Translations under genes and position numbers: made by a program | Shown: piece by piece, positions 17,714-24,431 of the stretch | How the letters are laid out: every line of letters begins with the position of its first letter | Numbering within the stretch: the stretch's first letter is position 1 | IMG/VR virus record: IMGVR_UViG_3300046691_000240 | Source: an uncultured virus (IMG/VR IMGVR_UViG_3300046691_000240) | Lineage: Duplodnaviria > Heunggongvirae > Uroviricota > Caudoviricetes | Length of the DNA stretch: 24,431 nucleotides | Reading direction: 5' to 3' (one strand) | The notes under the pieces: generated by a model | Seen by the model: the letters and a program-made list of their open reading frames with translations, nothing else | Told to the model about the DNA's origin: nothing | The model's database searches: none

Positions 17714-17898
17714 GTGAACTGCTGCCATGCCCCTGCTGCGGCGGGGTTGCCTACGAATTCGAGTCGATGGGCCTAGTCAACATCGAGTGTTCGACGTGTT
17801 TCCTGGCGTCGATCTGCGTACCCCTCGGGCAAGAAGCGCACATCGAGCGCTGGAACCGCCGCGTCACTCCAACCCCTGAACCGATAGGTCAATCCTGA
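17710..17898 (+). CDS. Lar-like (restriction alleviation family) zinc-ribbon protein
   Basis: MSELLPCPCCGG...CSTC...WNRR matches the Lar family pattern. Confidence 0.75.
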   Translation: MSELLPCPCCGGVAYEFESMGLVNIECSTCFLASICVPLGQEAHIERWNRRVTPTPEPIGQS

Positions 17899-18299
17899 TG
17901 GCTTTCTGTGTACCCGAGATTTACCGCGTCACCACCGGCCCGATGGCCAGCGATGCCAGTTTTGGCAACAGCGGCGCGTTCATCATTCCGATGCTGCAGG
18001 GCGAAAAGCTCTTTGGCGTGCAGATCATCGCCGCCGCTGGCGCTGGTTGGGAGCATGTCAGCGTGCGCACGCAGGAAGCGCCGCCGGACTGGGCCCTGAT
18101 GTGCGCGATCAAGGCCATCTTCTGGGGCCCGGAGGACTGCGTGGTGCAGTACCACCCGAAGGCCTCGGAATACGTGAACAACCATCTAAACGTGCTTCAT
18201 CTCTGGCGCGAAATCGACCGGGAATTCCCGCAGCCGCCGAGCTGGCTGGTCGGGGCCCTGAGCCCGCAATCCCACGCTGTCCCCGCCGAGGTAAACTGA
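17898..18299 (+). CDS. Conserved phage protein of unknown function
   Basis: GWEHVSV...W..MC.IK.IFWG.EDCVVQYHP..SEYVN.H..VLHLWR...P.PP, a His-rich pattern typical of a widespread phage family. Confidence 0.75.
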   Translation: MAFCVPEIYRVTTGPMASDASFGNSGAFIIPMLQGEKLFGVQIIAAAGAGWEHVSVRTQEAPPDWALMCAIKAIFWGPEDCVVQYHPKASEYVNNHLNVLHLWREIDREFPQPPSWLVGALSPQSHAVPAEVN

Positions 18300-18300
18300 A

Positions 18301-18750
18301 ATGGGCAAGTGCACCACGTACTACGACGAACTGCGTTTTGACACCCGCGACCCCGAACAAACCCACGTCTATTGCTTCATCAGGGGCGAGGGGGATTGCC
18401 CGTTCATGGTCTACGGCTGGCATCACAAGGCGTTCCCCAAGACGCTCACCACCCACGAGATTTTCAACAACATCTGGAGCGGCCAGACCGACCCGCTGAC
18501 GTGGGAACGCGAAGCGCCGCGGGCCGTGAACACCCCGGCGATCTACAACCCACAGGATCGCGTGCCGGTGCCGGTCGAGCAGCTGAATGCTTGGAGGGTC
18601 CTTTTCGCCCTGAACCCAAGCGATTTGTCGCAGGAAATGGCCGAGCAGATCACCTCGCACCTGACCTCCGTGACCCAGTGGGAAAAGATTTGCCCGCAGT
18701 GCCGGGCGCAGGAAATGTTCAACAAAGCGCAGCGGGATCAGCAGGAATGA
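18301..18750 (+). CDS. Hypothetical protein
   Basis: 149 aa, GAGGT RBS, coupled to the next gene. Confidence 0.65.
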   Translation: MGKCTTYYDELRFDTRDPEQTHVYCFIRGEGDCPFMVYGWHHKAFPKTLTTHEIFNNIWSGQTDPLTWEREAPRAVNTPAIYNPQDRVPVPVEQLNAWRVLFALNPSDLSQEMAEQITSHLTSVTQWEKICPQCRAQEMFNKAQRDQQE

Positions 18751-19025
18751 GCCAACCCCCGGACACCTGGGCCCGTGAAATGCGGGCCCTGCAGGACCAG
18801 ATCGAGCAGCTGACCCTAGGACTGGCCACCGCCAATTCCAGCCTTTTCCTGGTGCGCGGCCAGCGTCACGGCTACGCCTCCCTGCTCATGAATGCGCGGG
18901 AGGTTATCGAGCAGCACTGGCGACCTCACAACGAGGCTTCCCGGGTCGCCTGCGAACACATTCTGGTGCGCTTGGGCGACCGCAACGCCGCCGCTTTGGA
19001 GGTGGTGGCTGGGGCCGCGCCGTGA
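18747..19025 (+). CDS. Hypothetical coiled-coil protein
   Basis: ATG 18747 overlaps the previous stop; its own stop overlaps the next GTG. Confidence 0.6.
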   Translation: MSQPPDTWAREMRALQDQIEQLTLGLATANSSLFLVRGQRHGYASLLMNAREVIEQHWRPHNEASRVACEHILVRLGDRNAAALEVVAGAAP

Positions 19026-19249
19026 GCCCGAACTACGCGATCGAGCAGCGCCTGCGCCTGATTGATTTCCTGCTGGAGCACTATGGCCACGTCGGGCGCC
19101 CCGAGCTGTGCGACTTTTTCGGGGTCAGCGTGCCGTGCGCGTCGAACGACATCGCGATGTACCGGGAGGCCAACCCCGACAACGCCGAGTACGATTTTAA
19201 GAGCAAGCGGTGGGTGCGCAAGGTGACGTTTAAGCCGCAATATTCCTGA
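19022..19249 (+). CDS. Stand-alone winged-HTH protein resembling the N-terminal DNA-binding domain of CapW/BrxR-type WYL regulators
   Basis: EQRLRLIDFLLEHYGHVGRPELCDFFGVSVPCASNDIAMYREANPDNAEYDFKSKRW...FKP. Confidence 0.75.
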   Translation: MSPNYAIEQRLRLIDFLLEHYGHVGRPELCDFFGVSVPCASNDIAMYREANPDNAEYDFKSKRWVRKVTFKPQYS

Positions 19250-19281
19250 CCAATAAGACAACTATATAGAAGGAACTGCCC

Positions 19282-19557
19282 GTGGAAGAAACTGAAGACG
19301 TCAAAGTGGGGTTGACCCCGTGCGGTAGGGTGCGGCTGACCTACGCGATGGAACAGCGCATGCGTTTCATAGATTTTCAGCTGTTCCACTACGGCAAGAT
19401 CACGCGCAGGCACTTGATCGACTTTTTCGGCGTGACCTCGGCCACCGCCACCCGCGATTTCGCCCTGTTTGACGAGCTGTACCCGGGGCAGGCCCGCTTG
19501 TGCAACGTCACCAAGCACTGGGGCCCGACCTCGCAATACAGCCGCATTTTTCCGTAA
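19282..19557 (+). CDS. Second stand-alone CapW/BrxR-like winged-HTH protein (paralogue)
   Basis: EQRMRFIDFQLFHYGKITRRHLIDFFGVTSATATRDFALFDELYPG; AAGGA RBS. Confidence 0.75.
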   Translation: MEETEDVKVGLTPCGRVRLTYAMEQRMRFIDFQLFHYGKITRRHLIDFFGVTSATATRDFALFDELYPGQARLCNVTKHWGPTSQYSRIFP

Positions 19558-19585
19558 GCCCCACCATCGAGCAAAGGAATGACGC

Positions 19586-20152
19586 ATGAAGACTGAAATT
19601 CTCGCGGTACTCGACATCAGCGGTTCTATGCACACCATCGCGGCCGACGCCATCGGTGGGTTCAACACCTTCCTCAAGGATCAACAGAGCATCGACGGCG
19701 AAGCGCGCATGTCGGTGATCTTGTTCGATGACAAATACCAGGTGCTGTACAAAGCCAAACCGCTGGCCGAGGCCGAGCCGCTGACGGCGCAGACCTTCGT
19801 CCCGCGTGGCGGTACCGCGCTGCTCGATGCCATCGGCCGCACCCTCAACCAGCAGGGCGCGCGGATCGAGGCTGAGGGCTGGGCGGAAAAGGTGATCGTC
19901 TGCATCCTCACCGACGGCGGCGAGAACCAGAGCCGCGAATTCACCACCCCGGTCATTCAGGACATGGTCAAGGCAGCCGAGGCGAAGGGCTGGTCGTTCG
20001 TGTTCCTCGCAGCCAACCAGGATGCGTTCGCCACCGGCGCCCTGTACGGCTTCAACGCCGCGCACACGCAGAGCTTCGCAGCGAGCGGGGCAGGGGTGGA
20101 GGCGGCCTATGGCAGCATGAGCAACACCACCCGCACCTTGCGCGGTGCGTGA
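19586..20152 (+). CDS. vWA domain protein
   Basis: MIDAS motif DISGS, GGTALLDAIG, ILTDGGEN. Confidence 0.9.
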   Translation: MKTEILAVLDISGSMHTIAADAIGGFNTFLKDQQSIDGEARMSVILFDDKYQVLYKAKPLAEAEPLTAQTFVPRGGTALLDAIGRTLNQQGARIEAEGWAEKVIVCILTDGGENQSREFTTPVIQDMVKAAEAKGWSFVFLAANQDAFATGALYGFNAAHTQSFAASGAGVEAAYGSMSNTTRTLRGA

Positions 20153-20409
20153 TGGCGACCCCGGTTCGCAATGGGTCGGAACTGCGCGACCTAGTGCTAT
20201 GGGCCCAAGAGCAGGGCTTTACCTGTGACGTGACCAACGCGGCGCACCTGGTCTTTCGCCGCCCCGGGACCCCGTCGGTGTACGCCTCGTACACCCCGAG
20301 CTGCAAGTTTGCCCGGCGTCATACCCGGCGTGACCTGCTGCGCGCCCTGAAGGTTGCCGCGCAACGGCTGGCCGAGGGAGCCAACCCAGAGGACCCCACC
20401 GTCTGGTGA
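20149..20409 (+). CDS. HicA-like small basic protein
   Basis: QGF...T..AHLVFRRPG...V....TPS...DLLRA pattern; no HicB partner adjacent. Confidence 0.5.
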   Translation: MMATPVRNGSELRDLVLWAQEQGFTCDVTNAAHLVFRRPGTPSVYASYTPSCKFARRHTRRDLLRALKVAAQRLAEGANPEDPTVW

Positions 20410-20418
20410 ATGAACGGC

Positions 20419-20768
20419 AGCCGGAATCTCTCCCTGATGGATAGCCGATAGATAGCCGGAATCTCTCCCCGTAAATTAGAAAACACCCCCCTGTTTCTGA
20501 CTGGAATCGTAGAAACCGGGGGGTGGTTTCTAACCGTTTGTTAGAATTTCTAACCGAGTGCGTTGAAAAACAGGGTCTATTTCAACGGTTTAGCGCGGTT
20601 GGCCATACCTGAAACTGGGCCTGATGGATAGCCGGGATTTCTCCCCCATGGCCCTGTGGATAACGGCCGGAATCTCTCCCTCATAGCGCCGGAATCCCTC
20701 CCCCCGTAAGCCGGATTCTCTCCCCCATAAAGCCGGATTACCTCCCTCATGGAGCCGGAATCCCTCCC
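20419..20768 (+). repeat. Replication-origin iterons, 8 copies of nGCCGGAwT(c/t/a)(t/c)CTCCC-like 16-mers
   Basis: Copies start at 20419, 20454, 20630, 20665, 20687, 20709, 20731 and 20753; the last five are spaced exactly 22 bp apart. Confidence 0.9.
20655..20663 (-). promoter_or_regulatory. DnaA box
   Basis: TGTGGATAA (= TTATCCACA) immediately before the five phased iterons. Confidence 0.85.
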
Positions 20769-20813
20769 TGAACTCGTCAAAAAGGTCTTTAACATCAGTA
20801 CGTTACAAGGCCG

Positions 20814-20856
20814 AAAACAAGATGTAAAAACAAGCTAAAAAACAAGTAAAAACAAG
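20814..20856 (+). repeat. AT-rich AAAACAAG repeats (probable DNA-unwinding element)
   Basis: Four copies at 20814, 20827, 20839 and 20849 next to the iterons. Confidence 0.7.
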
Positions 20857-20874
20857 CTGTATAAAGGTAGGGGC

Positions 20875-21597
20875 TCAAACGGGCAGCTCCATTTGTTGTT
20901 CCACGCTGGCTTTTTTGGTGACCGTGAAGTTGAACCCGACCACCTTCCGCCCTTTGCGTCTCGGCTCCATGCTCGCGGTGAGGTCGGTCAGCTTGTTCAC
21001 TTCTTCCAGCCCGGGATCGAGCACCCATCGGCGCAAGTCTTTGACGCTGCCGTACTTCTCGCCCAGATCAAGGCTGTCGCGCAGCTGTTCCAGCGTGACC
21101 CACCATGCCCCGGTGGTCAGGAACTGCGCCATCAGCTCGTACAGGCGAATCGCGTAGAAGCTGTTCAACCGGCCCACCTGGCGAAGCTGCACCGTAGTGA
21201 ATTCCTTGTGCAACCGGGTCAGGTGCGGCAGCACCTTGGGGGAGAAGCCGAGTTCGACGCAGCCCTGGCCTTCCTTGTAGATGGCGTGGAACACCCAGCG
21301 CATTTCCTCGATCACCTTGCCGTTCTTGTAGCGGTACATCATGCGGCGCATCAGGCGTTTTGAAGCCTCGTCCAGGACCGCATAAGCGTGCCGGGGCTCC
21401 ATGCCAAAGACCTCGGCAAAACTGTCGGCGCGCACGGTGATGTAGCAGTGGGCCGGGGCGGGTTTTCGCGGATCGAGCTGCGAAGCGGCCAGCAGGATCA
21501 GGCGCTTTTCGTTGAGCGTCAGCGCTTGGGATGCCTGAATCAGCTTGTTGGACTGCGAAACCTTGTGGTTCGTCGTCGGTACTTTCTTCTCAGCCAT
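20875..21597 (-). CDS. repA: Plasmid replication initiator, Rep_3 family
   Basis: VSQSNKLIQAS..LTLNEKRLILLA, ELGFSPKVLPHL..L...FT, SFYAIRLYELMAQF, LRRWVLDP.LEEVN, RKGRKVVGFNF; likely start ATG 21597. Confidence 0.93.
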   Translation of the reverse strand: MAEKKVPTTNHKVSQSNKLIQASQALTLNEKRLILLAASQLDPRKPAPAHCYITVRADSFAEVFGMEPRHAYAVLDEASKRLMRRMMYRYKNGKVIEEMRWVFHAIYKEGQGCVELGFSPKVLPHLTRLHKEFTTVQLRQVGRLNSFYAIRLYELMAQFLTTGAWWVTLEQLRDSLDLGEKYGSVKDLRRWVLDPGLEEVNKLTDLTASMEPRRKGRKVVGFNFTVTKKASVEQQMELPV

Positions 21598-21642
21598 TAC
21601 CCACCCCACACTGGACTCTATGGCTACTAGGCTAGTCGGGGA

Positions 21643-21670
21643 GAGGGAGAAGCACAACACCTTCTCCCTC
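21643..21670. promoter_or_regulatory. Inverted-repeat operator upstream of rep (probable autorepression site)
   Basis: GAGGGAGAAG-N8-CTTCTCCCTC; arms share the TCTCCC iteron core. Confidence 0.7.
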
Positions 21671-21678
21671 AGCGGAGG

Positions 21679-22029
21679 CTACGCCAGAAACGGCCCGGTG
21701 TACTTGGCCAGCGGGTTGCCCAGCTCACCGTGCAGGCCGGGCCAGCGCCGCTCCAGCATGTCGATCAGCGCCTGCCCCACGGTCTTCAACGACTCCGGCG
21801 CCACGCCCGCCCTCACCATGTGCGACAGGGTGATCGAAGCCGCGCCCAAGTGGTAGGCGGTCATCGAGCGGTCGGCTGTGGTCATCTTCACCACGATGCG
21901 TTGGAATTCATCGGCCATCCGCTGCTGCGCGAGCTGGCCCATCTTTTCCAGGGTCTCGCGGCTCTTGGACGACACGCGGACTTGGTCGGGGTTGTCCGGG
22001 TCGATCTGAAAATTCACTTCGTCGTGCAT
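21679..22029 (-). CDS. Hypothetical helical protein (array member 5)
   Basis: ATG 22029 overlaps the upstream TAA; AYHLGAASITLSHMVRAG...RWPGL. Confidence 0.65.
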   Translation of the reverse strand: MHDEVNFQIDPDNPDQVRVSSKSRETLEKMGQLAQQRMADEFQRIVVKMTTADRSMTAYHLGAASITLSHMVRAGVAPESLKTVGQALIDMLERRWPGLHGELGNPLAKYTGPFLA

Positions 22030-22289
22030 TACTTCAACGCCTCCGGCAGCAGCTGCCCGCCCAGCGCTTCCCAGCGCCCCGGGTGCGCGGCCTCGACGGC
22101 GGCGTACAGGGTGCGGACTTCCATCACCGCTTCCTCGGCGGTCAGGTAATCGTGGTGCTTCATCATGCCCAGCGCGGCCATGTGCAGGCCGAGCGTCAGT
22201 GCGGCGGCTGTCTCGCTGCTGTCGGGGAGGAAATTCAGGCCGCGGCGCAGGTTGGCCAGGGTTTGTTCTTTGAGTTCTTGCTTGGTCAT
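22029..22289 (-). CDS. Hypothetical helical protein (array member 4)
   Basis: 86 aa, coupled on both sides. Confidence 0.7.
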   Translation of the reverse strand: MTKQELKEQTLANLRRGLNFLPDSSETAAALTLGLHMAALGMMKHHDYLTAEEAVMEVRTLYAAVEAAHPGRWEALGGQLLPEALK

Positions 22290-22600
22290 TTTGGGGTGGT
22301 CTCATCGTTCAGGGGGTCCCACATCCACAGCTGATCAAACAGCTCCAGATCGTCGGGACGGGGTTGGGTTTCGGCGTAAGCGTTGCGCAGCTGCGCCAGA
22401 TACTCGGCGACTTCCGCCGGTTCCAGCAAGCCGTATTCCTGCAGTTCGTGGATCGCGCCCGCCACCAACCCGGCGCCGTTGAAGGCTTCGTAGAGGGTGC
22501 TGTGGCCCAGCGAATACTTGTAGTCAAACAGCTGCAGGTCCAGCCGGCGCTTTTGCTCGACGCGCGCGGCGGTGTGCCACGGTTCGTCATCGGCGCTCAT
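22286..22600 (-). CDS. Hypothetical helical protein (array member 3)
   Basis: ATG 22600 with GGAG RBS and ATGA overlap. Confidence 0.7.
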   Translation of the reverse strand: MSADDEPWHTAARVEQKRRLDLQLFDYKYSLGHSTLYEAFNGAGLVAGAIHELQEYGLLEPAEVAEYLAQLRNAYAETQPRPDDLELFDQLWMWDPLNDETTPK

Positions 22601-23262
22601 GCGGTGACTCCGTTCCAGTGTTGCGGGCCCCACAGGCGTTCACGCAAGCCGGGCCAGTGTTTGTCGAAGACCTCGTTGGCCTCGCCTTCGAGGTGGGCGA
22701 GGGATTCCTCGCTGAAGCCGGTGTCGCGCAGGTTCATCAGCACGCCATAGGTCACGCCGAGGTAGAAGCACACGCCCGATTCATCGGCGCCGGGGACCTT
22801 GCTCAGGACGTCTTCGTACTGCTGCAGCAGCTCGGTCTGGCGCGGGATGACGTTGACCCCGGCCCAGAGGGTGCCCTCTTTGAGCAACTTCAACTCCACC
22901 AGGTCGAAGGTGTCCTTCATGTTGTTGGACAGCTCGGCGGTTTCGGCCTCGCTGACCACCCGCAAATCGCGCAACGCGCTCAACCGGCCCCGGGCCTCGC
23001 CGAGCACGAAGCTCGCGCCGCGCGGGGTGATCACCAGATCCAGCAGGGCCACGGACTGCGCCACCAGCCGCAGCTGCACGGCCTTCTGCGGGTGCTCGCC
23101 GGGCGGCCCGGTGAACGGCCGCTCGCGGTCGTAGCTGTCTTGCATCACGTTGACGCAGGCACTGTCGTCGCAGGTGGCGCAGGCGGTCTCGCCGAACCAG
23201 CGGGTCGCCGGTTTGCCGCAGCCCGCATCGCAGGTGCCGCTCACCTTCATGTCGTCGTGCAT
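22597..23262 (-). CDS. Hypothetical protein: Cys-rich N-terminus plus two helical repeats (array member 2)
   Basis: CDAGC...CATCDDSAC followed by two LG...G.L..LRD segments. Confidence 0.7.
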   Translation of the reverse strand: MHDDMKVSGTCDAGCGKPATRWFGETACATCDDSACVNVMQDSYDRERPFTGPPGEHPQKAVQLRLVAQSVALLDLVITPRGASFVLGEARGRLSALRDLRVVSEAETAELSNNMKDTFDLVELKLLKEGTLWAGVNVIPRQTELLQQYEDVLSKVPGADESGVCFYLGVTYGVLMNLRDTGFSEESLAHLEGEANEVFDKHWPGLRERLWGPQHWNGVTA

Positions 23263-23537
23263 TACAGGCCCCTCGGGTCGGGTGACAGGGTGTCTTGCAG
23301 GTGGCTGGCGAACAGCTGGTCGACCTGCAGGCTGGTGGTGGCGCGCAGCTGGGCTTGCAACACGTCGGCGGTTTCCGGGGTCATCGCGCCTGCTTCGGTC
23401 AGGGCGAGCAGGTAACCGACGGCGACGAACCGGCGATTGCTCGCGGCTTCCATGGTCGGGGCGAGGGTGACGTAGCGGATCTGCTGCAACGCCTTGGCGT
23501 GCAGCGCATCGCGCTCGAACTGGGTGTATTGAGGCAT
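23262..23537 (-). CDS. Hypothetical helical protein (array member 1)
   Basis: AAGGAG RBS; AVGYLLALTEAGAMTPE. Confidence 0.7.
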   Translation of the reverse strand: MPQYTQFERDALHAKALQQIRYVTLAPTMEAASNRRFVAVGYLLALTEAGAMTPETADVLQAQLRATTSLQVDQLFASHLQDTLSPDPRGL

Positions 23538-23577
23538 CGCAGCTCCTTGCGGATAGGGGTGGTCAAATCGCGGGCAT

Positions 23578-23611
23578 AAAAAAGGCCGAGGGCATTGGGG
23601 ACCTCGGCCTT
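23578..23611 (-). terminator. Intrinsic terminator
   Basis: AAGGCCGAGG-N10-CCTCGGCCTT running into a U6 tract on the minus strand. Confidence 0.7.
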
Positions 23612-23704
23612 AGTGTGGGACACACGCACAACGGGGATGCGCACTGCGGTTGGCCCACGAGTACAGCAAGCCGGGTGCACGTTAGCACACGGCCACTAGG
23701 GTGC

Positions 23705-23992
23705 CTAGCTCTGGATCGGTTTGTCCACCAGCGGCACTTTCAGCCCTTTGGTCTCGTTCACCAGGAGCAGGAACATCCCCGCCAGGTGGGCGATGTGGAA
23801 GTGCGTCTGCACCCAGTCATCGCTGACCGCGACCTCGATCTGCATCGGCACCGTGCCATCGGGGTTGGCCGGGCAAATCACCAGGTGCACCGGGAAGCCG
23901 TCGAGCAGCCCGCCGCCCACGCCGCGACTCAACCTAAAGGCGTCCTCGACCGAGGCCACCGTGCACAGCTGCAACCGCAATTTTTCCGTCAT
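23705..23992 (-). CDS. Hypothetical protein
   Basis: AAGGAAG RBS before ATG 23992; 95 aa. Confidence 0.6.
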   Translation of the reverse strand: MTEKLRLQLCTVASVEDAFRLSRGVGGGLLDGFPVHLVICPANPDGTVPMQIEVAVSDDWVQTHFHIAHLAGMFLLLVNETKGLKVPLVDKPIQS

Positions 23993-24012
23993 CAGCAACT
24001 TCCTTCTTTAGG

Positions 24013-24033
24013 GGCTGGCCAGTGTAGCCGAGC
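24013..24033 (-). repeat. 21-bp direct repeat, copy A (contains TACACT on the minus strand)
   Basis: GGCTGGCCAGTGTAGCCGAGC, identical to 24361-24381. Confidence 0.85.
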
Positions 24034-24059
24034 CCGGGGTGGGGTGGCCAAGGGCCCCG

Positions 24060-24344
24060 TCAGCTTCGGCGGCGGCTGGGCGTGTGGCCCATCAACTTGT
24101 CGTGCTCGATGCGGGCCTTGTCGCGTTGGGCGTCGATGTAGGCCGCGAGGTCCACCAGGTGCACGCCCCTTGCCGACTTCTGGCTGCTCTCCATCTGCAC
24201 CAGGGGCAAGTCGATCTCCCCGCGCGCGACCTTGAGCTTCATTTTGTCCGGGGTGAGGTGGGTGAAGTAGTCCGCGCACACCCGCTCTAGGGGAATGATC
24301 ACTTGGCAGTCGTACTGCGCCATAAGGAGAAAGGTGGTGTTCAT
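24060..24344 (-). CDS. Pyocin activator PrtN-family DNA-binding protein
   Basis: MNTTFLLMAQY...IIPLERVCADYF.HLTPDK...GEIDLPLV.ME.SQKSARGVHL.DLAAYID family signature. Confidence 0.9.
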   Translation of the reverse strand: MNTTFLLMAQYDCQVIIPLERVCADYFTHLTPDKMKLKVARGEIDLPLVQMESSQKSARGVHLVDLAAYIDAQRDKARIEHDKLMGHTPSRRRS

Positions 24345-24360
24345 GGGGTGCCTTCGGGGT

Positions 24361-24381
24361 GGCTGGCCAGTGTAGCCGAGC
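24361..24381 (-). repeat. 21-bp direct repeat, copy B
   Basis: Identical to 24013-24033; 16 bp upstream of the PrtN-like start. Confidence 0.85.
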
Positions 24382-24431
24382 TGGCCAGCGCCGGGGTCCC
24401 CGGGGGAGGCGGTGGCGCCCCCCGGGGCCCC

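Follow-up and report, generated by a model that had tools for sequence, protein, structure and literature searches.

A coupled phage operon built from diverged copies of one predicted three-helix domain

Five small genes follow one another with overlapping ends at positions 21679..23537 of the uncultured-virus record IMGVR_UViG_3300046691_000240. They raise two questions: how are their products related to each other, and why would a phage keep several versions of one protein side by side? The stretch analyzed here, 24,431 nucleotides (nt) at its full length and referred to as the window, is a portion of the genome of a tailed temperate phage from soil. The genes, g1 to g5, are translationally coupled and make up one operon of the early region, a region bounded by a PrtN-like excisionase on one side and, on the other, by a Rep_3 initiator with its iterons. 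Six copies of one domain of ~85 amino acids (aa) are encoded here; five of them are secure, while the sixth, g1, is probably a copy as well. A preliminary description, made from the sequence alone, had pointed to such an array; its observation is confirmed below, and its interpretation, a panel of host-protein inhibitors or a hetero-oligomeric complex, is partly supported. The genes and the units within them are the following.

23537..23262 (23262..23537 in ascending order), minus strand: g1, 91 aa, the conserved anchor gene of the array; probably a far-diverged domain copy with a long third helix.
23262..22597, minus strand: g2, 221 aa, in which a Cys-rich module is fused to two helical domains.
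23122..23238, minus strand: Cys-rich module of g2, residues ~9–47 (local hidden Markov model (HMM) match to residues 2–48, E 9e-28).
22855..23097, minus strand: g2a, residues 56–136 of g2, a diverged copy with an insertion ahead of its W-x-G cap (local HMM match 56–130).
22600..22854, minus strand: g2b, residues 137–221 of g2, a canonical copy with an HWPGL cap (local HMM match 139–219).
22600..22286, minus strand: g3, 104 aa, a single, very acidic copy (isoelectric point, pI, 4.4).
22289..22029, minus strand: g4, 86 aa, a minimal complete copy of the subfamily that closes the array in most relatives.
22029..21679, minus strand: g5, 116 aa, a single copy (residues ~24–116) with an RRWPGL cap, forming a singleton subfamily.

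All six peptide stretches by which the array was first recognized are encoded on the minus strand of this interval. The junctions, described earlier as overlaps of 1 or 4 nt, measure in order from g1 to g5 TAATG (1 nt), ATGA (4 nt), ATGA (4 nt) and TAATG (1 nt), and Shine-Dalgarno-like motifs are located ahead of the starts. G+C at third codon positions (GC3) is 0.77–0.85 in the called frames and low at second positions (GC2), as expected of real genes at this overall G+C. A 208-aa open reading frame (ORF) listed for g5 is an over-extension, whose initial 92 residues overlap g4 out of frame. The pI of g2 is 4.8, close to that of g3, and 59 domain copies have a median pI of 5.3, with 48 of them below 6; this mostly acidic character argues against DNA binding.

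The relationship between the copies is remote. An all-pair BLASTP comparison of g1–g5 recovered only g2b and g5 (25% identity, E 6e-8), all other pairs giving E≥0.044, and the window copies are just 11–25% identical to g5. A seed profile combined g2b, g4 and g5 with the C-termini of five outside homologues. The homologues found outside with g2 share its Cys-rich N-terminus, and several of them bear the same helical domain at the C-terminus. Against this profile, from which it was excluded, g3 scored 23.6 bits, a value reached in none of 1000 shuffles (maximum 7.8), while g2a scored 6.0 bits (reached in 3 of 1000) and g1 3.2 bits (48 of 1000). With the related loci added, the profile was iterated to 61 segments, none of them a g1 relative. 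Judged by whether they match the family profile significantly over ~75–90 positions, g2b, g3, g4 and g5 belong to the family with 54–93 bits; across the family profiles, g2b ranged from 74 to 79 bits and g5 from 54 to 107 bits.

Membership of g2a is transitive. A stand-alone orthologue in one of the related arrays (L002:3771-4097) matches the seed profile (E 3.8e-5, 20.1 bits), has a canonical RFPGL cap, and falls with g2a, P0006a and P0025 into one BLAST cluster (cluster 4, E<1e-8). We count g2a as a family member because this intermediate links both; once its subfamily enters the profile, g2a itself scores 46–49 bits.

The case of g1 rests on its family. The single sequence gave a borderline 11.9 bits against the 61-segment profile (reached in 1 of 3000 shuffles). 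In profile-profile comparison with hhalign, a 7-sequence g1 family matched the domain family with P 4.1e-4, and the 16-sequence family with P 4.5e-5 and a probability of 69%, over 72 aligned columns across all three helices. The latter score, 29.0, was equalled in none of 300 column shuffles (mean 10.3, maximum 17.9), and the reversed alignment scored 10.4. The 16 g1 homologues are 44–89% identical and share an AASNRRF motif without exception. Among relatives, g1 is conserved far better than the other copies, and it has no typical H/W-P-G cap. Taken copy by copy, the alignments and profiles make g2b, g3, g4 and g5 firm members, g2a a well-supported one, and g1 a probable one, so that the earlier count of six diverged copies holds for five by profile or orthologue, but only with this qualification for the sixth.

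AlphaFold2 models were calculated for g4, with a 31-sequence family alignment, and for g1, with 16 homologues. The g4 model (predicted local distance difference test, pLDDT, 94.3; predicted template modelling score, pTM, 0.82) has helices at residues 3–20, 26–45 and 51–68, followed by an ordered tail. The g1 model (pLDDT 90.9) has the same layout with a longer third helix (helices 6–24, 29–48 and 54–83). Both match the domain pattern of three helices (~18, 20 and at least 18 residues) joined by loops of 4–5 residues, so that fold prediction agrees with the proposal of one shared unit. As modelled, the domain is an ~85-aa three-helix bundle, in which helix 3 ends in an (H/W/R)-P-(G) cap and a short tail follows; the unit of ~60 aa proposed earlier was too short. 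Of the 31 aligned family sequences, at least 90% have a proline after helix 3, usually within (H/W/R)-P-(G/A/E), and the tail lies past this nearly invariant residue. The caps in the window are HWPGL (g2b), QPRPDD (g3), AHPGR (g4) and RRWPGL (g5); that of g2a, LWAGV, has no proline, and LSPDP of g1 aligns to the proline column.

The second gene encodes, ahead of its two domain copies, an N-terminal Cys-rich module, which is to be added to the preliminary description. Cysteines 11, 15, 28, 31 and 36 are invariant in 8 homologues, and the module is presumed to bind zinc. It has no relative in Pfam, PHROGs, NCBIfam or the PDB, and a search of the ESM Atlas with residues 1–55 of g2 gave just unnamed small viral or archaeal proteins and zf-HIT-like shapes, all below the threshold of the tool. 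The module is also widespread as stand-alone proteins of 55–90 aa, which make up ~40 of 58 representative hits and include low-GC ones; one of these proteins, P0026, has no match in annotated collections. A scan of species genomes with the module alignment gave one weak locus of 18 residues (L001), without a domain copy there.

The modules are combined in several ways. In P0056 the order is reversed, the helical domain preceding the Cys module, and ORFs with the Cys module lie inside the array in L002, L007, L009 and L010. The g2 of the window joins a Cys module, a g2a-type and a g2b-type domain; it is a fusion, because both domain types occur elsewhere as separate genes (L002:3771-4097 for g2a, L004:1469-1759 for g2b). 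An extra conserved module (ENHEWH ... GSALEQTN) separates the Cys module from the helical domain in P0008–P0012 and P0020–P0023; among annotated proteins it matches only one, a hypothetical protein from Pseudomonas phage pf16 (E 7e-4, 54% identical over 37 residues).

The domain defines a small family, and all its known members come from metagenomic phage contigs. They are rearranged combinatorially, with fusions to each other, to further modules, and to the Cys-rich module, which may precede or follow them. An HMM search of 1.84 billion representative proteins returned 58 at E≤1e-3; the profile included Cys-module columns, and by matched positions only ~14 of the 58 contain the helical domain. 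With a domain-only alignment, 34 proteins were found at E≤1e-3 in a set of 5.8 billion. All are metagenomic, several lie on contigs of 82–86 kb, and all are unnamed or “hypothetical” except for one with an automatic label of the source. In annotated phages and plasmids the region has no nucleotide match, and g2 has no tblastn match in phages; IMG/VR, scanned with g2, Rep and g5, yielded no confirmed relative, and the nearest virus record (G001) lacks g2.

Ten related loci were gathered by a metagenome scan baited with the g1 family, among them two near-duplicate pairs (L009/L010 and L008/L011). Each of the ten has domain genes beside its g1 homologue, from 2 to 7 in number: seven in L002, three in L003, four in L004, two in L005, three in L006, three in L007, four in L008, five in L009, five in L010 and four in L011, several of these contigs being incomplete. 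The comparison of copy number in related phages that the preliminary description called for thus shows arrays throughout, with the reservation that the constant linkage to g1 is biased because g1 served as bait. Two unannotated ORFs of the largest array, L002:1600-1875 and L002:1872-2270, give weak, in-register profile matches (11.4 and 9.9 bits, similar to the score of g1) and may be additional, very diverged copies.

BLAST clustering of 59 distinct domain segments resolves at least 8 subfamilies: a pre-g1 type, the g3, g4, g2a and g2b types, and three more, with g5 as a singleton. The pre-g1 type lies upstream of g1 in all ten loci and is absent from the window. The g4 type, for which 12 orthologues at 47–86% identity were found, is the final domain gene in L002, L003, L006, L007, L008, L010 and L011; the orthologues of g3 are P0046, P0052, P0058 and L003:1044-1391. 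Such separate subfamilies with orthologues in other phages, together with the low identity between copies within the window, bear out the view of an array formed by old duplication and diversification.

To compare rates, pairwise non-synonymous substitution (dN) and its ratio to synonymous substitution (dN/dS) were computed by NG86 in L006, L007, L008 and L011, with the L008/L011 pair set aside. The g4-, g1- and pre-g1-type genes have dN 0.14–0.34 and dN/dS 0.56–0.84, and the neighbouring helix-turn-helix (HTH), VWA-like and DUF7352 genes dN 0.03–0.14 and dN/dS 0.18–0.67; these values are comparisons and not absolute rates, because NG86 is crude under strong codon bias. In wider gene sets, the median dN/dS of the array copies is 0.55–0.67. 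L008 and L011 differ by dN 0.00–0.02 in most compared genes (0.07 in DUF7352). Their g4-type genes (L008:5590-5859 and L011:5590-5868) differ by dN 0.29 and dS 0.49, and this divergence amid near-identity elsewhere indicates replacement of a cassette, apparently by recombination. The array of the window itself is stable on a 70.5-kb contig from a different study, which spans 20800–24006 (3207 nt) with 46 differences and no gaps (~98.6% identity).

Searches with the array proteins led to no characterized family. In Pfam, PHROGs, NCBIfam and PADLOC, nothing above a curated cut-off was found for g1–g5, and the isolated matches were at chance level (for example PEP_hydrolase, E 0.0053, 16.4 bits against a cut-off of 33.8); no Pfam family is common to the 31 family members even at E≤10. 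In sequence-profile searches of the PDB, the family alignment reached no better than E 0.09, and the g4 subfamily had no hits at E≤10. Fold searches were equally unspecific: Foldseek on the PDB reached E 0.5 (g4) and 0.33 (g1), to bS20 and ribosome recycling factor; the best E in BFVD was 0.76; VIA, run against 48,161 chains, gave best Z scores of 8.0 (g4) and 8.9 (g1), inside the noise stated by the tool for helical bundles; and the ESM Atlas held no usable match for g4. Nothing specific in PHROGs, BFVD or the PDB pointed to a characterized anti-defence protein.

Generic three-helix bundles such as bS20 and YlaN share an up-down-up arrangement with the domain. The VIA match of g4 to YlaN (2odm_B) has Z 8.0 with a root-mean-square deviation of 2.4 over 71 residues, and g1 gave Z 7.8 to the same chain and 8.1 to 10px_1t. 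Fourteen entries, YlaN and bS20 chains among them, are common to the VIA top-50 lists of g4 and g1, so that one type of bundle fits both, though not specifically. With sequence identities of 4–15% and no profile match, however, the resemblance to these proteins is one of fold only.

Two identities were considered and rejected. Cas11e/Cse2, the small subunit of the type I-E Cascade, is likewise helical, and g4 gave sub-threshold matches to it (PADLOC PDLC01624, E 0.001; TIGR02548, E 0.013, 15.6 bits against a curated cut-off of 28.5). PDLC01624 was matched by 2 of the 31 family members and a second Cas11e model by one. For a direct comparison, 21 Cse2 sequences were taken from 23 genome loci, two being left out whose translations looked wrong; the hhalign result for the g4 family against them (P 0.077, score 14.6) lies inside the range of shuffles (mean 10.8, maximum 19.6). 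No Cse2 or Cas11 chain appeared among the Foldseek or VIA matches listed for g4, an absence that excludes no family. A colicin- or pyocin-type immunity protein was also dismissed, as no Pfam immunity family was matched by g1–g5 (E≤1) or by the 31 members (E≤10).

We favor the reading, with a probability of about 0.4, that the array encodes a panel of acidic proteins that are expressed early, bind other proteins, and serve host takeover or counter-defence. The copies would be non-enzymatic protein-binding modules and not DNA binders, as is suggested by their small size, their mostly acidic character, and the conservation of a hydrophobic core and cap. They would be made early and jointly with the replication initiator, and each subfamily would bind a different partner, most likely a host protein, so as to take over the host or disarm its defences. 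The Cys-rich module could provide a second binding surface, while duplication, fusion and cassette exchange could tune the repertoire to the host strain. A panel of inhibitors or anti-defence proteins is consistent with the acidity of the copies, their faster evolution compared to neighbouring genes, and the exchange of cassettes.

Known phage loci offer a partial parallel. Like fast-evolving accessory or anti-defence clusters, for instance anti-CRISPR loci, the array encodes small, mostly acidic proteins without a family, in an early operon between conserved genes, with variable content in close relatives and protein evolution above that of neighbours. In contrast to such clusters, all genes here are paralogues of one domain, some joined with one another or with a Cys-rich module, and no marker regulator gene lies inside the array. 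Variable clusters of small early accessory genes are already known, among them the “accessory regions” of Silas et al. (bioRxiv 10.1101/2023.04.06.535777); what is new is an array of one undescribed domain with Cys-module fusions in either order. For a phage of ~86 kb it is unusual to have one domain present up to 7 or 8 times in its early region, and full-text searches of the literature found no description of such an array, word searches being weak for an unnamed family. The multigene families of large DNA viruses are tandem paralogue arrays that serve host interaction, in eukaryotic viruses and with unrelated folds. As in the present array, one small domain has been duplicated in tandem and has diverged, and strains differ in copy number.

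Several observations weigh against a binder panel. No homology ties any copy to a target in the library, PDB or fold searches. The order of subfamilies is fairly fixed (pre-g1 type, g1, variable copies, g4 type), which fits distinct roles in one machine equally well as a panel of binders. The strict conservation of AASNRRF in all 16 g1 homologues is unlike typical arms-race genes, and a three-helix bundle is too common a fold to point to a function. Among the sequencing runs listed as containing the region, none is of RNA. The ratio dN/dS is below 1 in nearly all pairs, and NG86 is unreliable at the codon bias of these genes, so that “fast” evolution may reflect weak constraint only; the impression that copies always occur in arrays is biased by the bait with which the loci were found.

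A more ambitious form of the binder panel seems to us less likely than not. It holds that a lineage of temperate rhizosphere phages of ~82–86 kb with an iteron origin carries a true multigene family, in which one three-helix cassette domain in up to 7 or 8 copies is fused with a zinc-type module, swapped between near-identical genomes, and diversified such that each subfamily neutralizes a different host factor or defence system. If true, phages would possess an equivalent of the host-range multigene families known from large eukaryotic DNA viruses, with one scaffold to mine for several inhibitors. Under any reading, two undescribed phage protein families, the helical domain and the Cys-rich module, are now defined by alignments, a division into subfamilies, and confident models. 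Should the copies each bind a host protein of their own, a single scaffold would yield several natural inhibitors and show clearly how a binding domain diversifies when copies are duplicated, fused and exchanged as cassettes. As parts of one complex, they would represent a new type of accessory machinery in iteron-replicating phages. The system is experimentally tractable, with small genes, a confident model, and a likely host group that is easy to handle.

The alternatives are best judged together with the genes on either side of the array. Downstream, towards which the array had been said to read, lie the following features.

20875..21660, minus strand: Rep_3-type replication initiator, directly downstream of g5 (Pfam Rep3_N 3.3e-35, Rep3_C 3.1e-16).
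20805–20858: AT-rich stretch downstream of the Rep_3 gene.
20666–20775: iterons, five tandem 22-bp repeats downstream of rep.
20608–20658 and 20421–20482: dispersed related copies of the iteron.
20476–20533: inverted repeat of 23 nt downstream of rep.

The initiator is of the Rep_3 iteron type, as shown by its Rep3_N and Rep3_C domains and the adjoining iterons, and it starts on the same strand 18 nt after g5. The stretch at 20421–20858 is an iteron-type origin next to the gene and suggests plasmid-like theta replication, possibly with a phage-plasmid lifestyle. The array thus does read into rep in the window, but this adjacency is not conserved: a Pfam scan of the downstream region in L003, L006, L007, L008 and L011 (and of L002 in part) found Rep_3 after the array in one of the five, L007. 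In L003, L006, L008 and L011, the array is followed by a conserved ORF of 137–141 aa, then by an unrelated 208-aa gene on the opposite strand. The 137–141-aa ORF is phrog_6158-like, as checked for L007 and L008.

This arrangement bears on the possibility that the paralogues are subunits of one hetero-oligomer, for example a scaffold acting with Rep_3 at the iteron origin in helicase recruitment or replisome organization, or a partition-like complex. Tight translational coupling would favor stoichiometric production, the array runs straight into rep with the iteron origin next to it, the order of subfamilies is conserved across loci, and the g1 and g4 types are present in nearly all of them. 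We nevertheless consider such a complex rather unlikely, given that Rep_3 follows the array in so few of the scanned relatives. Moreover, a fixed complex is hard to reconcile with 2–7 copies of changing subfamilies and with the lack in the window of the pre-g1 type, which all ten loci possess. A complex prediction for g3 with g4 returned a score of 0.00 and the verdict “no answer”, with controls not run, and is evidence neither way.

Upstream of the array, the window contains the following.

23578..23611, minus strand: terminator-like hairpin 40 nt upstream of g1, a 10-bp GC-rich stem followed by a T run (from sequence and fold).
23998..23705, minus strand: ORF97, an orphan of 97 aa between the excisionase-like gene and the hairpin (GC3 0.89, good codon-position GC pattern).
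24344..24060, minus strand: PrtN/excisionase-like gene (Pfam PF11112 6.3e-30, phrog_1300).

The hairpin was missed by a consensus terminator scan, and a consensus scan across 20400–24431 found no sigma-70-like promoter. Expression of the array may hence depend on read-through from the excisionase side, and array and rep may be delayed-early genes reached via read-through or antitermination. ORF97 matched no family in Pfam, PHROGs, PADLOC or NCBIfam. It was considered as an additional domain copy and rejected, as it gives no profile signal and has no relative in the ten related loci. In contigs of two other runs (X3 and X4), 7 nt stand in place of the PrtN/excisionase-like gene (24006 joined to 24357, ~350 nt lost), so that this gene is present or absent among near-identical phages.

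These surroundings could also suit regulators internal to the phage, which would act in the lysis-lysogeny decision, in excision, or in the early-to-late switch as anti-repressor- or anti-sigma-like adaptors on phage regulators or RNA polymerase. The array lies between the PrtN-like excisionase (a serine recombinase in relatives) and a replication/immunity region with HTH genes. The hairpin ahead of the operon and the lack of a promoter-like site in the scan suggest controlled, possibly antiterminated expression, and g1 is strongly conserved. However, regulation rarely needs 5 to 8 paralogues, the cassette differs strongly between near-identical phages in which the HTH gene is unchanged, and the acidic proteins show no HTH or other DNA-binding signature in Pfam. 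We regard this explanation as unlikely.

Small acidic helical proteins in variable paralogous arrays also resemble the orphan immunity arrays of polymorphic toxins, and the products might accordingly be immunity or exclusion proteins that shield the lysogen or the phage from toxins of competitors or from other phages. This seems quite improbable to us, as there is no toxin gene nearby, Pfam immunity families are lacking among the 31 members even at the permissive threshold, and the genes belong to an early lytic-type operon coupled to rep instead of occupying an independent, moron-like position. Finally, that the copies are decaying duplicates or mis-called ORFs without function is very improbable: they belong to no known family and their median dN/dS is relatively high, but all frames are open with the expected codon-position GC pattern, subfamily orthologues have been retained in diverged phages, mostly with dN/dS values under 1, g4 and g1 give confident models, and the array is kept at ~98.6% identity on the contig from another study.

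The remainder of the window agrees with a tailed phage. Its minus-strand genes include, by PHROGs, those for the large terminase, portal, head protease, major head protein and endolysin. The nearest annotated terminases, from Pseudomonas phages Lana and PMBT3, are ~33% identical, and proteins identical to those of the window are found on contigs of up to 86,431 bp. A divergent module occupies the plus strand at 17898–20409, and its HTH, VWA-like and DUF7352 genes are kept beside the array region in L006, L007, L008 and L011. Within this module, positions 19586–20152 match phrog_7371.

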